64,000 nucleotides of DNA from Escherichia phage kaset. Shown here piece by piece: positions 48,927-58,346 of the stretch (position 1 is the first letter of the stretch; every line of letters begins with the position of its first letter). The stretch lies in sequence record PV245935.1; one strand, written 5' to 3'. The position numbers and the translations under genes are program-made. The notes under the pieces are model-generated. The model searched no databases and was not told the origin of the DNA. It saw only the letters and a list, made by a program, of their open reading frames with translations.

Positions 48927-50597
48927 ATGTCAATTGAACATGACAATCTTCCAGAGGATACAGGTGATGAATTTGGTGCAATCTTTGACGAAATTCAAGA
49001 TGCTGGTGTTTCAGAAGAAATGCAAGCGGCAGAGCAGCAAGGCACCAGAGCTAAAATAAGCCTTCAGCACAAGGCTGTTGAGAAAGATGCAGAGCGCATG
49101 GAATGCTACGGTGAAGAAGACTTGGTTGAAAGAGCACGTTTGCTCGCCTCACTTCAGGTAATCAAGTTCCCTCACTACAAACCGACGAAAGATGATTTTG
49201 TTCTTCAGGCGGACCGGACGAGTGACATGAACCGTTATGCGGTTTTCGACGCGTTGTTTGATAAGGGAAGCGGCATCGTCCCATTCCCTCACAAAGATAC
49301 TTTTCGTGGACGCTTAGTCGACCATCGCGGCGAAACATTCACCGACCGGACATTGGAAGTCACAGAGATAGTTGCCGCTGTCGACGCAGCAGGTCTGTCC
49401 AACCCAAACTCACGTCAGGTCGCTCAATCCTATAAGGAATGGGCCATGCGTTATCAGCGCGACGACCTGATGGACTTCTTCTACAAGAAGCTGCCTGAAT
49501 GGGACGGTACTGCGCGCATTGAAAAATACCTTATCGAGCTATTCCGACCGTTCGATACAGAGTTAAACCGACAAATCGGTGTGTATTTTTGGCTATCGCT
49601 CTATAACCGCCTGACCAATCCTGGCTGTCAAGCGCCAATCTCCATTGCGCTCATCGGCGGCCAGAACGCAGGGAAGAGTTATTTTAGTAAGCTGCTTTGC
49701 GAAGCTATTATGAACGACCGCCACGCAACACCGATTCCGTTGAACTTGGCCGCGCAAAACTTCAACCCGTTCTTGCGAGCTATTACGGGTCGCTCAATTA
49801 TCGCGAACGTTGGCGAGATGACAGGCTTTAAAAAGGCTGACATCGAAAACATGAAAGCATTCCTGACTAAGACGGAAGATGACCTGGACTTCAAATTTGA
49901 AGATACGCAGGTTAAACCACGCCAGTGGATTGCTATCATGGACGGCAACGAATACGCAGGCATGCAGCGTGACGATACGGGCAACCGTCGTGTGTATCCT
50001 ATCTTTGTTGGCCAACTCGCCGACAAGGACGGGCAACCGAACTGGTCTAAAGACTTCCAAGCTGACCTTTCCACTTTGAAAGAAGACGTTTGGCAGCTGA
50101 TGGCTGAGTGCGCTGCGTGGATGGAGAAGCACGGCGAAGCAGGTTACAACGCCTTTGTTGGTGAAACATCTCGTATGCTTACTGAGTTCAGTAAGAACGA
50201 AATGGAACGTGCGCGCGGCGTTATCCGTGATGAGATGGTCGACAACGACCTTGTTGAAGTCATCATCACCGCGCCTTATGACCGACATCACAGCGGACGC
50301 TGGCACATCACCAGTGGGGCAATCGCTATGGGATTCAGAGCTAAGTGCGGCAAGTCGCCTTTCTCACGTACCCTTGCGCCGCACATGTCGAAGCTTGGAT
50401 TTGAGCCTGCAACCTATCGCAACCAGCGTGGCTACTTTACGCCGCTGATTAAGAATGAAGCAGGGGAATACATTTCTGACTTGATGACCATCTTAGCGTA
50501 TCTTATTCGCGACGAGTCTGACCCTGAAGATATTGAATTCTTGAAGAAGGTTATTGAACGCAAACGTTCTTTAGGAAGAGATAAGGATGAATTCTGA
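48927..50597 (+). CDS. VirE/D5-like primase-associated P-loop NTPase (putative replicative helicase)
   Basis: 556 aa; Walker A IALIGGQNAGKSY; follows primase gene. Confidence 0.55.
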   Translation: MSIEHDNLPEDTGDEFGAIFDEIQDAGVSEEMQAAEQQGTRAKISLQHKAVEKDAERMECYGEEDLVERARLLASLQVIKFPHYKPTKDDFVLQADRTSDMNRYAVFDALFDKGSGIVPFPHKDTFRGRLVDHRGETFTDRTLEVTEIVAAVDAAGLSNPNSRQVAQSYKEWAMRYQRDDLMDFFYKKLPEWDGTARIEKYLIELFRPFDTELNRQIGVYFWLSLYNRLTNPGCQAPISIALIGGQNAGKSYFSKLLCEAIMNDRHATPIPLNLAAQNFNPFLRAITGRSIIANVGEMTGFKKADIENMKAFLTKTEDDLDFKFEDTQVKPRQWIAIMDGNEYAGMQRDDTGNRRVYPIFVGQLADKDGQPNWSKDFQADLSTLKEDVWQLMAECAAWMEKHGEAGYNAFVGETSRMLTEFSKNEMERARGVIRDEMVDNDLVEVIITAPYDRHHSGRWHITSGAIAMGFRAKCGKSPFSRTLAPHMSKLGFEPATYRNQRGYFTPLIKNEAGEYISDLMTILAYLIRDESDPEDIEFLKKVIERKRSLGRDKDEF

Positions 50598-51244
50598 TGA
50601 ATAAAGCAATCAACATCGCTAAATTCTTTCAACATCTCGGTGAACTGAACAAAGAGAGTGACGTTCACGGAGAAGAAATGAACCGGATGATTTCAACCGT
50701 GTTGCGTGGTTTTGGGTACGATAAGGACTCCATCACCTGTAAACGCACGAAGCTTGTCGATGAGACATACCTTTACTACGTTGAATTGCGCGTAGGCAAG
50801 GATTTGATGATCATCGACCCTAAATTGGAAGGGGCGCACTGTTTTGGCGCTCACCCTCGTGCGAGTGAATTCAAGGGGCGCGGTCGCAACCGACTCCAGA
50901 AGCTTGATGATGCAGGCGACCTGAACATCTCGATGTTCCTCAAAGAGTTCCTTGCTCTGCCGAAGGTTGCATCCTCAACAGGTCGTGATGACCTGTGCAA
51001 GATTGGATTCAGAACTAAAGATTTGCGCAATGCGCTACGCAAGAAGGGATTTGTGCCTTCTTATGATAACGTCGCCGCGCTGATGGCTTCCATGGAGGAA
51101 GCTGAAGCAATGGATAAAGTGCGCGGCTATTTCCTGAATACAGGCTACACAATGTATGAGTGGCACACCAAAGGATTGACTGTCGCCGACTTCATCTATT
51201 CATTAGAGCAGAAGTATGTACGCAATATGCAGGCCACAGGATAA
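50597..51244 (+). CDS. hypothetical protein
   Basis: 215 aa; ATGA overlap with upstream stop. Confidence 0.45.
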   Translation: MNKAINIAKFFQHLGELNKESDVHGEEMNRMISTVLRGFGYDKDSITCKRTKLVDETYLYYVELRVGKDLMIIDPKLEGAHCFGAHPRASEFKGRGRNRLQKLDDAGDLNISMFLKEFLALPKVASSTGRDDLCKIGFRTKDLRNALRKKGFVPSYDNVAALMASMEEAEAMDKVRGYFLNTGYTMYEWHTKGLTVADFIYSLEQKYVRNMQATG

Positions 51245-51283
51245 TTATCATCAAAATATTTGCTTTTCTGACGAGGTGATATT

Positions 51284-51508
51284 ATGATTAATTTAGACAG
51301 GATTGAGTTAGCACTTAGTACCTTAATCAAATATTACCAGTTTGCTTTTAAGGCTAGTTTGTTTGGCTTGTTCAATCCTCATCAAGCAGCAAAGGCTCGA
51401 AGCAATGCCAACCGCCTGCGCTGCACTGGTATAGTCATCCACGACCGGATATTGACAGAGGGTAGATTCAGCCATGAATACACAAGGGAGAATAACAAAG
51501 CAACGTAG
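51284..51508 (+). CDS. hypothetical protein
   Basis: 74 aa; GAGGTGA RBS. Confidence 0.35.
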   Translation: MINLDRIELALSTLIKYYQFAFKASLFGLFNPHQAAKARSNANRLRCTGIVIHDRILTEGRFSHEYTRENNKAT

Positions 51509-56686: not shown

Positions 56687-57012
56687 AATTGAAATGGTAC
56701 GTGGACCCTGAGCCAACAGGCCAATACAGGTCATTCCAACGTCGCGGCTGGCCGACTTGTTACAGCGGTAATCCCGATAAAGAAGATTGCGAGCTGCTTG
56801 CCGCTATCGTAAGCCTCGACCGTCACGGCTATGAAGGCCACTACGCGAGAGCAACCAACCTTCGGCTTAAGGTGCGCATCCATTTCAAGGTCGCAGGCGA
56901 GGACCGCACCGGACTCTCCAAGGAAGAGTTCAGCAGCATCGCTGAAGCAAAGGCATGGCTCAAGGCGTTCTATAAGAACAACCCTAAATTCTATCCAACT
57001 AAGGATGCATAA
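56683..57012 (+). CDS. hypothetical protein
   Basis: 109 aa; ATGA overlap. Confidence 0.4.
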   Translation: MKLKWYVDPEPTGQYRSFQRRGWPTCYSGNPDKEDCELLAAIVSLDRHGYEGHYARATNLRLKVRIHFKVAGEDRTGLSKEEFSSIAEAKAWLKAFYKNNPKFYPTKDA

Positions 57013-57245
57013 TGACCGATAAACAATACGCAGTCGGGCAACGTGACATCGAGCAACTCGACGAGGGCGGCTATTATACGCGCCACATCTATGCCATGAC
57101 GCATGAAGGACTTTACAGCAAGTCGGACATCGCCGCTGAACTGGCCCATCGTGACTTGCAAATTGACGTGTTGCGTCTCGCGCTTGAGAAGCAAACGCAA
57201 ATCGCTATTGAAATTTTGGAGAAGTTAAATGATACAACGTTATGA
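57012..57245 (+). CDS. hypothetical protein
   Basis: 77 aa. Confidence 0.4.
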   Translation: MTDKQYAVGQRDIEQLDEGGYYTRHIYAMTHEGLYSKSDIAAELAHRDLQIDVLRLALEKQTQIAIEILEKLNDTTL

Positions 57246-57897
57246 TGTTGATTATTGCACGCAGCACGCTTGTACATGCGAAGTTGTAAAGGATGATGAA
57301 GGCGGCTACGTTGAATATGAGGACTATGCCGCGCTGGAAGCGAAATATAGTTCTCTTACGTACATTGACAGCGAACCGTTTGCATACATCATTCAGGACA
57401 AGTATGAAAGGGAGAAAGGATTAGATGGTCATCTCAGTCGCAGTCATGTATCCAAATATGTTAGCCAGGAAGACATCAACGAGCATGAAATAACTTGCAT
57501 CCCGCTCTATCGCCAAGCACAGTTGGCGATAGCAATAAAACCGTTGGCAAAAACCGATGATGAGGACTACGCCGCGCTGGAAGCGAAATATGGTGAAGCG
57601 CAACGCGAGTTGGTTGCATTACGCTCACAGGTCCGTGATGCGTCGGCGCTCGTTAAGCAGTTGCACGACGTTGTTGCTACTATAGGCGTGGATGTTGATG
57701 CTTGCGAAAAGCAGGAAGAAGCGTGGACCGCGTGGTTTGGTGGAGAGAATCCGGTGCCTGGGAAGATGGTTGTGTTTGAGTTGTTAAACGGTTACAAATC
57801 AAAAGAGGCTGTGCCTTCGGATAATTTGAACTGGGGTGCAGTGGCAAGCCCTTTTGGCGAAGACATTGTTGCTTATCGGGTCGTTAAGGAGGGGTGA
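57229..57897 (+). CDS. hypothetical protein with internal repeat and W-x-W-GG-NPVPGK C-terminal module
   Basis: 222 aa; EDYAALEAKY occurs twice; C-terminal WTAWFGGENPVPGKMV. Confidence 0.45.
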   Translation: MIQRYDVDYCTQHACTCEVVKDDEGGYVEYEDYAALEAKYSSLTYIDSEPFAYIIQDKYEREKGLDGHLSRSHVSKYVSQEDINEHEITCIPLYRQAQLAIAIKPLAKTDDEDYAALEAKYGEAQRELVALRSQVRDASALVKQLHDVVATIGVDVDACEKQEEAWTAWFGGENPVPGKMVVFELLNGYKSKEAVPSDNLNWGAVASPFGEDIVAYRVVKEG

Positions 57898-58346
57898 TGA
57901 GTAAACGGCTTATCGCCGCTGGCTGGGCCATACCGAAGTGGGGCCATCGTGCGCATTACTTTGACGAAGGAGAAGTGCAAAGCCTTTGTGGTCGCGCAAC
58001 GTATTTCGGTGATGAGCGCGTCAGCGGCGATTACATCGACTCGCTTTTAGGTAAAGGTGATTGCAAGAAGTGCCAGAATATATTAAGAGATATTCTTACG
58101 CAAAAAGGATTGCTTGAGCTTGATGAATCGGAAGAAGTGATTGAGCTTAAGCTGGAAGCAAATTACCTTATTTATACGTTCAAGAACTATTACGCAACTA
58201 ATATGCGCTCAAAAATGAGCGAGGAAGTAATAGAAAAGGTGTTCACCTACAATCCGCTAAGGATGAATAAAACTAAATTGAAGAAGTTTAATATAATGTT
58301 AAGGAAAGAATTTAAAAGGCTAGGAGTGAAGAATTTTATATTTTAA
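57897..58346 (+). CDS. hypothetical Cys-containing protein
   Basis: 149 aa from ATG 57897 (RBS AGGAGGGG); last gene of rightward operon. Confidence 0.4.
   Translation: MSKRLIAAGWAIPKWGHRAHYFDEGEVQSLCGRATYFGDERVSGDYIDSLLGKGDCKKCQNILRDILTQKGLLELDESEEVIELKLEANYLIYTFKNYYATNMRSKMSEEVIEKVFTYNPLRMNKTKLKKFNIMLRKEFKRLGVKNFIF

Follow-up and report, generated by a model that had tools for sequence, protein, structure and literature searches.

A variable block of small, overlapping genes with repeated terminator/promoter-like cassettes in the Wifcevirus genome of Escherichia phage kaset

We have analyzed a 64,000-nucleotide (nt) stretch of DNA from Escherichia phage kaset (sequence record PV245935.1; hereafter the window), with a focus on a block of 24 consecutive small open reading frames (ORFs) on the plus strand at positions 50597–58346 (g1–g24, 51–222 amino acids). 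Sequence comparisons with related phages give good support for describing this block as a hyperplastic accessory region in which PeSL-like elements form the joints and which follows eight conserved small genes. A PeSL is a stem-loop that overlaps or adjoins a sigma70-like early promoter ahead of ORFans and that acts as a recombination joint (Arbiol et al. 2010, PMC2839356; Comeau et al. 2014, PMC4122927). The window belongs to Wifcevirus, as a megablast search of nucleotide records with 50597–58346 returned 28 phage records, 27 of them named Escherichia or Shigella phages and one the assembly of Wifcevirus WFH; those inspected are members of the Wifcevirus group. Every product beneath the match in these relatives is annotated as a "hypothetical protein", which is what was already known of the block, and our search of the literature found no published characterization of any of its genes.

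Wifcevirus phages are E. coli myoviruses distantly related to Pbunavirus, and their isolation on E. coli K-12 succeeded only with cryptic prophages removed (PMC11990801). Their replication is unusually fast, and in the BASEL study the isolates were insensitive to nearly all defence systems tested, with no known mechanism of protection (PMC11990801). The block lies directly downstream of, and in the same orientation as, a gene for a VapE-like primase/helicase (48927–50597; Pfam PF05272, E 1.6e-28). The direct terminal repeat of WFH, 3,701 bp in length and described as "about 3.7 kb" (PMC6563267), maps to window positions 58828–62497. Thus, the block is the last unique sequence before the right copy of the repeat and fills the final 7.7 kb ahead of it. 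Rfam and tRNA scans found no non-coding RNA genes.

Alignment across the approximately 28 Wifcevirus records, which include WFH, WFC, FEC19, ECML-117, Mansfield and Bas98–101, breaks down in the block and nowhere else in the genome. Positions 1–25000 and 25001–50000 of the window are covered over 99–100% of their length with 91–97.5% identity in these records (megablast). The block itself is covered over 29–91%, in 2–10 pieces. Gene order is nevertheless the same in the relatives, with 87–96% DNA identity wherever sequence is shared, and all of them keep the reading frames open. A gene-by-gene tblastn matrix of 14 fetched loci (13 spanning the block) resolved two portions. The proximal genes g1–g8 (50597–52925) have 87–100% amino-acid identity in every relative. 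The distal genes g9–g24 form a patchwork of alleles with identities of 26–99%, and g14, g15, g16, g17 and g21 vary in presence or absence between relatives. The allele combination found in the window is particular to it and includes a 222-residue g23 with a prophage-derived insert. Ten of the 13 relatives also carry an extra ORF of 164–166 residues between g6 and g7 (52339–52342), which has no Pfam or PHROG hit and is missing from the window and from the WFH annotation. A search of IMG/VR for related loci, using the primase as query, returned only 4 loci. Since the block is the sole strongly variable part of the genome, it is an obvious place to look for the genes behind the defence resistance of Wifcevirus.

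The conservation of g1–g8, unlike the rest of the block, raises the possibility, which we rate as somewhat unlikely, that these genes, and perhaps some of the others, provide core auxiliary functions in replication or transcription alongside the VapE-like primase/helicase and are not directed at the host. The first base of g1 is also the final base of the primase stop codon, and g1 is the only protein of the block with a counterpart in a more distantly related phage, Pantoea phage Kyle (29% identity), where it again lies downstream of the primase. Ratios of non-synonymous to synonymous codon changes in g1–g8 are low, and the basic nature of most of the proteins would suit binding to nucleic acids. 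However, none of the eight matches a replication or transcription family in Pfam, PHROG or NCBIfam, and no Pbunavirus is among the tblastn matches listed, even though the two genera share replication genes at the DNA level. Additionally, conservation inside one genus does not prove essentiality.

The description of the distal part as an exchangeable region is supported by two intergenic gaps, of 85 and 78 nt, which hold near-identical composite cassettes on the plus strand. Cassette 1 (53255–53339) contains a hairpin at 53261–53287 (−13.7 kcal/mol, z −5.0) followed by a T-run, and a promoter-like element made up of TTGCCT (53279–53284), a 17-nt spacer and TATACT (53302–53307), followed by a Shine-Dalgarno motif. 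In cassette 2 (54519–54596), the hairpin is located at 54522–54550 (−14.7 kcal/mol, z −4.2), again followed by a T-run, and the promoter-like element consists of TTGCCT (54541–54546), a 16-nt spacer and TATACT (54563–54568), again followed by a Shine-Dalgarno motif. The two cassettes share an identical 24-nt core, AAGGTGAGCTAAATGCTTGCCTTT, at 53263 and 54525, where none is expected by chance. The core hairpin has 11–12 bp, and its 3′ arm holds the TTGCCT. A third, analogous site follows g24 on the same strand: a terminator-like hairpin with a T-run (58361–58382) ends the block approximately 440 nt before the repeat boundary at 58828, and is followed by a promoter-like TTGCCT, 16-nt spacer and TATTAT (58386–58413).

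The cassettes, of approximately 85 nt, are near-invariant in 13 relatives despite differing neighbor genes; the 24-nt core was found in 13 of the 14 fetched loci, and the WFH annotation places terminators at the same sites. Gene content changes next to them. Extra ORFs lie directly before cassette 1 in Bas100 and WFC and directly after it in CWP003, and different genes follow cassette 2 in FEC19 and ECO71P1. In relatives without g14, cassette 2 is joined to the next gene through AAGGAGAATTGATTATGAG, which is repeated at the starts of both g14 and g15 in the window. Insertions and deletions are located exactly at the cassettes or between repeats of 25 nt in the start regions.

A further insertion is found in RCIP0319 (PV464738, locus 5410–6838), where three extra genes lie immediately upstream of cassette 2 and fill exactly the interval from the stop of the g13 orthologue to the cassette. 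They encode a 48-residue ORF, a membrane protein (phrog_4899) and a 275-residue protein that matches phrog_887, "queuine tRNA-ribosyltransferase", with an E of 4e-71. Assignment of the 275-residue protein as a TGT-family enzyme was not upheld by Pfam (no hit) or by PDB sequences (no significant match), and assignment of the membrane protein as a YhhQ-type transporter similarly found no Pfam hit. From its PHROG annotation alone, the 275-residue protein may be DpdA-like, and thus a cargo for 7-deazaguanine modification of DNA. Phage DpdA enzymes insert 7-deazaguanines into DNA, which protects it from restriction.

Block genes also have homologues well outside the genus, all annotated as hypothetical, as identified by tblastn with the concatenated block proteins. 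Matches to g10 are present in Seurat-like siphoviruses (37–44% identity), to g14 in a 45-kb coliphage (37%), to g17 in Salmonella and Klebsiella phages of 40–45 kb (40–47%) and to g18 in Kagunavirus (∼52%). The N-domain of g19 is found in phAPEC8-like myoviruses (48–52%), g21 in phage BRET (83%) and g22 in Klebsiella phages of ∼110 kb and in Vibrio phages (∼51%). Single genes are also common to T5-like phages.

Exchange appears to extend to parts of genes. All-versus-all BLASTP, phmmer and profile–profile comparison of orthologue alignments (hhalign) identified a single significant pair of paralogous segments inside the block, residues 111–169 of g19 and residues 164–221 of g23 (the C-terminal 59–62 residues of each), with 36% identity and an E of 3e-10 (hhalign probability 99%, E 5e-18). 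This confirms the W-x-W-GG-NPVPGK module (hereafter the W-module) that an earlier note, made by a model from the letters of this DNA, had described as common to 55836–56345 and 57229–57897. The second paralogy proposed there, an FKVG-TY-L motif shared by g14 (54597–54893) and g20 (56345–56686), did not hold up. The match is 12 residues long with an all-versus-all E of 0.17 and an hhalign probability of 10.7% over 10 columns, and is best taken as chance. No third copy of the W-module was found when all six frames of the window were searched with a profile of the hits. Another old duplication possibly connects g15 (54896–55198) and the N-domain of g19 (55836–56144) as distant paralogues, based on 85 collinear columns with 24% identity (hhalign P 6e-4, probability 29%). 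This similarity is suggestive only, as 276 comparisons were made.

The W-module is a widespread, unannotated phage domain of approximately 58 residues, as judged from sequence searches, with no Pfam family and no match to a PDB fold. A profile of the two window copies (56166–56342 in g19 and 57718–57894 in g23) matched 580 cluster representatives at E≤1e-3, 24 of them at E≤1e-10, among 1.84 billion. The matches include stand-alone proteins of 59–67 residues and tandem arrays of 2–4 copies, and the module is also present in rV5-like and Kagunavirus-like phages. The conserved core persists over hundreds of clusters, and no Pfam model covers it. Among 105 sampled proteins, the partner domains are DUF3310 (6), dGTP_diPhyd_N (2) and DUF6378 (2). 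A word-indexed homologue search with the 72-residue W-module alone returned nothing, and the same kind of search with g24 returned close orthologues only. Structure prediction, which the earlier note had suggested as a check, gave a confident model of the module (pLDDT, the predicted local distance difference test, of 80.7), but a fold search with this model found no significant match to solved structures. In BFVD, one structural match is named "SaV-like". The model of full-length g23 has a mean pLDDT of only 63.6 and is poor outside the coiled coil and the W-module; it was, therefore, kept out of the fold search.

The protein g23 (57229–57897) is itself a mosaic of a head, a repeat-bracketed insert, a coiled coil (residues 111–152) and the W-module. 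The sequence EDYAALEAKY, noted earlier as repeated within this ORF, is indeed present in two copies, encoded by a 35-nt direct repeat (57317–57351 and 57560–57594) that is 94% identical and 243 nt apart. The repeats bracket an insert of 81 codons, the product of which shares 70–81% identity with a segment of Klebsiella proteins. A lambdoid prophage encodes one of these homologues in a nin-type region, with O/P-like replication genes on one side and NinE/RusA/Q on the other. Across Wifcevirus contigs of ∼68 kb, g23 orthologues range from 130 to 250 residues and vary in the head (two types), the coiled coil (two alleles), the number of W-modules (one or two) and the presence of linker-flanked inserts. 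A full-length match to the 222-residue g23 exists in just two of the 13 relatives, at 56% identity, and the Mansfield orthologue of g19 is without a W-module. A bolder proposal is that the W-module is an undescribed phage-specific binding domain with a new small β-fold, and that g23 is a diversity-generating cassette gene that swaps heads, inserts, coiled coils and W-modules. We regard this as a long shot. If true, swapping at the in-frame linker would allow g23 to follow changes in a host target or defence sensor, and would account in part for the as yet unexplained resistance of Wifcevirus to a broad range of defence systems.

Variation of this type could also be expected if the distal genes were largely dispensable, selfish ORFan cargo of the "ORFanage" or moron type, kept by frequent horizontal transfer with no specific role in takeover or counter-defence, although we consider this improbable. 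Genes come and go among genomes that are otherwise 91–97% identical, block genes have a patchy occurrence in unrelated phages, and portable terminator/promoter cassettes flank the insertion points. Comparable regions of T4-like phages hold non-essential genes (PMC2839356), and spontaneous loss of such a region is reported to be possible in a cyanophage (PMC4503421). On the other hand, substitutions are biased to third codon positions in all testable ORFs, which indicates selection on the protein. The Cys/His motifs described below are invariant across alleles of only 26–34% identity, and the core of the W-module is similarly maintained over its many clusters. The cargo explanation of the distal genes and the replication explanation of g1–g8 are not mutually exclusive.

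Database searches assign no function to any block gene, in agreement with the earlier note, which had found none recognizable. For the 24 proteins, no Pfam hit reached threshold, NCBIfam gave no hits and PADLOC gave no match at E≤0.1; their concatenate found nothing at E<1 among PDB sequences. PHROG matches were obtained for g4 (weak), g10, g16, g17, g19 and g21–g24 only, and all are to families of unknown function. The claim that several of the proteins are Cys/His-rich can be made more specific, as g12 and g24 have conserved patterns. In g12, C6, C9, H23 and C27 are present in 12 of 12 sequences, and in g24, H20, C31, C56 and C59 are present in 13 of 13, even between alleles that are 26–34% identical. 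With four conserved Cys/His ligands and CxxC-type spacing, both are putative zinc-ribbon or zinc-finger proteins. The retention of the ligands across divergent alleles of g24 points to an architecture in which a conserved zinc-ribbon-like N-domain is followed by a C-terminal half that is swapped.

The explanation that we consider likely overall is a hyperplastic Wifcevirus accessory block that is split into units by the cassettes, undergoes gene turnover and encodes products directed at the host or at its defences. In this model, host RNA polymerase would read three units, from the primase to g9, from g10 to g13 and from g14 to g24. The two near-identical cassettes would separate the units, with the 3′ arm of each hairpin carrying the −35 element of a sigma70-like promoter, and the third terminator would close the block. 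Within units, translation would be coupled through overlaps of 1 or 4 nt to produce small, soluble, mostly basic cytoplasmic proteins. Turnover of g9–g24, which is apparent from the comparisons, would proceed by homologous or microhomology recombination at the conserved cassettes, at the repeated start regions and at the in-frame EDYAALEAKY linker inside g23. Whole genes, alleles and single domains would thereby be exchanged with unrelated enterobacterial phages and prophages, and the W-module, an autonomous domain of which alleles have 0, 1 or 2 copies, would be among these mobile units. Most products probably act early or in mid-infection and bind components of the host or of its defences. 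In the related Pbunavirus 14-1, transcription depends on host RNA polymerase, with many sigma70-like promoters and short transcription units (PMC10914365); this pattern fits early or middle expression of the block, of which it is not proof.

The chance that at least one block gene is a counter-defence or host-takeover factor is, in our estimate, slightly short of even. This part of the interpretation is plausible but unproven, and draws on analogy, the DpdA-like cargo of RCIP0319, the defence resistance of the genus and a weak link to SaV/DUF3310 (see below). Several observations weigh against it or against the wider model. No ORF matches a family of known function or a solved structure in Pfam, PHROG, NCBIfam, PADLOC or PDB sequences. 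Nor does any resemble a known anti-defence or host-takeover protein in these general libraries; as no library dedicated to anti-defence was used, the absence of such hits says little either way. Only 9 of 12 positions in the promoters of the cassettes agree with the consensus, and the region as a whole shows no excess of sigma70-like matches compared to shuffled sequence (27 versus 22.3 expected). The proximal third, g1–g8, is conserved rather than hyperplastic and may serve replication or transcription. The DpdA-like protein belongs to a relative, outside the window, and has no Pfam TGT hit. Finally, "early" or "middle" expression of the block is an inference, and the terminal repeat (58828–62497), rather than the block, may be the true immediate-early region. 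Thus, the earlier reading of the block as a site of takeover and anti-defence genes stands as far as it concerns an accessory, fast-turnover ORFan block, as indicated by the alignment failure and the allele swaps, and lacks an ORF that resembles a known protein of either type.

The array is compact, with non-coding DNA accounting for 213 of 7750 nt (∼2.7%; 97% coding). ORF starts were refined using Shine-Dalgarno motifs, which precede most of them, and the annotation of the relatives. Overlaps of 1 or 4 nt are present at 15 of 24 junctions (17 if GTG/TTG starts are used). The approximately 25 small, translationally coupled ORFs counted previously become 24. Three junctions have longer overlaps (17, 17 and 35 nt), three have short gaps of 2–7 nt, and three are true intergenic gaps (39, 85 and 78 nt). 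For the 22 ORFs that could be aligned gap-free to orthologues, the fraction of substitutions at third codon positions is 0.46–0.84, compared to a non-coding expectation of 0.33. This bias indicates that the 22 are translated genes under selection. The two outside this test, g18 and g23, are conserved or have many homologues. We conclude from these sequence data that the block ORFs are real genes.

The proximal portion, like the whole block on the plus strand, begins with g1 (50597–51244; 215 residues, isoelectric point (pI) 8.8), which overlaps the primase stop by 1 nt and is 96–100% identical across the genus. It is followed by g2 (51284–51508; 74 residues), a conserved ORFan, and by g3 (51474–51683; 69 residues), which overlaps g2 by 35 nt and has a third-position fraction of 0.63. 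The ATGA overlap of g3 leads into g4 (51680–51958; 92 residues), which has the weak PHROG match. The start of g5 (51966–52187; 73 residues) was set to agree with the annotation of the relatives, as a longer ORF from 51801 would heavily overlap g4. The remaining conserved genes are g6 (52184–52339; 51 residues), which is very basic with a pI of 10.7, g7 (52342–52689; 115 residues) and g8 (52689–52925; 78 residues, pI 4.3), the final gene of this portion.

The first mosaic gene, g9 (52925–53254; 109 residues), has allele identities of 65–98%. Downstream of cassette 1 are the acidic g10 (53340–53657; 105 residues), which matches phrog_1972, and g11 (53654–53872; 72 residues), a mosaic with 58–99% identity. 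These are followed by g12 (53869–54261; 130 residues), where the zinc-finger pattern is N-terminal and CCHC-like, and by the very basic g13 (54258–54518; 86 residues), which has a GTG start with an alternative ATG at 54273. The unit after cassette 2 starts with g14 (54597–54893; 98 residues), which is absent in Bas99, FEC19 and ECO71P1, and g15 (100 residues), which is mosaic or absent in relatives. Next are g16 (55198–55383; 61 residues; phrog_22503), present in 7 of 13 relatives, and g17 (55380–55673; 97 residues; phrog_26489), present in 6 of 13. The following g18 (55657–55839; 60 residues, pI 11.4) has 45 conserved N-terminal residues and a variable C-terminus. The N-domain of g19 (169 residues) matches phrog_21861, and g20 (113 residues) is 91–96% conserved. 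Toward the end of the block are g21 (56683–57012; 109 residues; phrog_14973), the acidic g22 (57012–57245; 77 residues; phrog_34533), g23 and g24 (57897–58346; 149 residues; phrog_2358). In the latter, the conserved N-domain has an H-C-CxxC pattern and the C-terminal half falls into two allele classes.

The proteins are predominantly basic, with a pI above 8.7 for 15 of 24; five are acidic, and g23 has a net charge of −19. The small size of the genes, their paired, overlapping arrangement and the presence of some acidic and basic pairs (e.g., g22/g23 versus g21/g24) would be in keeping with superinfection-exclusion or toxin–antitoxin functions. Such functions are very improbable, since none of the 24 products has a predicted transmembrane segment (maximum 19-residue hydropathy of 1.19), when many exclusion proteins are membrane proteins, and since no toxin or antitoxin family was hit in Pfam, NCBIfam or PADLOC. 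It is barely credible that many of the small ORFs are not genes and that the array is an artefact of ORF calling: several ORFs are shorter than 75 residues, g3 has its long overlap with g2 and is left out of the annotation of two relatives, and the g18 C-terminus varies, but the third-position bias in 22 of 22 tested ORFs, the open frames and Shine-Dalgarno motifs, the near-absence of non-coding DNA and the homologues of several ORFs in unrelated phages all argue against it.

Other repeats were observed in the window, mostly in the terminal-repeat region. This stretch (58828–62497) carries several small genes on both strands and, at 59107–59153, the strongest sigma70-like matches of the scanned region. 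The motif ATTTGCACTAT occurs on the plus strand at 59165–60643, in eight exact copies and one with a single mismatch, all inside the terminal-repeat region; no copies were found outside it in the window (1.85 expected). This motif may serve as a promoter or operator specific to the phage. The motif GGATGATACG is found at two places only, at 6629–6885 (near 6.7 kb, with six copies distributed over the two strands) and at 58763–58949, where three exact copies and one near-copy straddle the repeat boundary at 58828. It has 12 matches in the window at no more than one mismatch, versus 3.06 expected, and could represent iterons or a regulator or terminase site. A pair of ∼50-nt direct repeats (61221–61270 and 61618–61668), 397 nt apart, is also located inside the terminal-repeat region. 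Elsewhere, 44136–44635 contains periodic direct repeats of 33 and 99 nt, with a composition that suggests minus-strand coding, possibly of a repetitive Ala/Lys/Glu-rich protein segment.

The block is an ordinary kind of phage region, since shuffled blocks of small ORFans are standard in phage genomes. What is added here is the architecture of the cassettes, the definition of the W-module as a widespread domain that lacked annotation, and the mosaic make-up of g23. These provide three leads: PeSL-like terminator/promoter cassettes as recombination joints outside T4-like phages, a ∼58-residue domain in hundreds of phage protein clusters, and the exchange of g23 modules at an in-frame repeat, including with nin-region genes of temperate phages.

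Three known systems allow comparison. The first is SaV, a DUF3310 early protein of lactococcal phages and the partner of the abortive-infection protein AbiV; both toxicity and recognition by a defence system are possible for proteins with DUF3310 (PMC11373665). SaV is linked to the block by the fusion of the W-module to DUF3310 in 6 of 105 proteins of other phages, a weak connection through domain co-occurrence in a minority of proteins; neither g19 nor g23 has a DUF3310 hit in Pfam. The second is the nin region of lambdoid phages, which likewise consists of co-directional, small, overlapping mosaic genes immediately downstream of replication genes, and which shares material with the block through the Klebsiella prophage protein related to the g23 insert (81 residues, 70–81% identity). 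Unlike the lambdoid phages, the phage here is virulent, and the Pfam search identified no NinB, NinE, NinG, RusA or Q in the block.

The closest parallel is with the PeSL regions of T4-type phages. In both, clusters of small ORFans that vary between close relatives are located between conserved modules. In both, a repeated intergenic cassette combines a terminator stem-loop and a sigma70-like promoter, followed by a Shine-Dalgarno motif and a start codon, and is found at the boundaries of insertions, deletions and replacements between close relatives. The overlap of the stem with the −35 element, as observed here, defines one of the PeSL sub-classes. There are also differences: phi1 and RB49 have ∼50 PeSLs, compared to two identical cassettes and one analogue here, and PeSL promoters match the consensus exactly, whereas the promoter halves here are weaker. 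Additionally, mini-circle formation has been looked for in infected cells in the case of PeSLs; the promoters and terminators of the cassettes here are predicted from sequence. The phage is a 68-kb Wifcevirus and not T4-like. Thus, the region appears to work like a PeSL region, although it is not a member of the T4 set.

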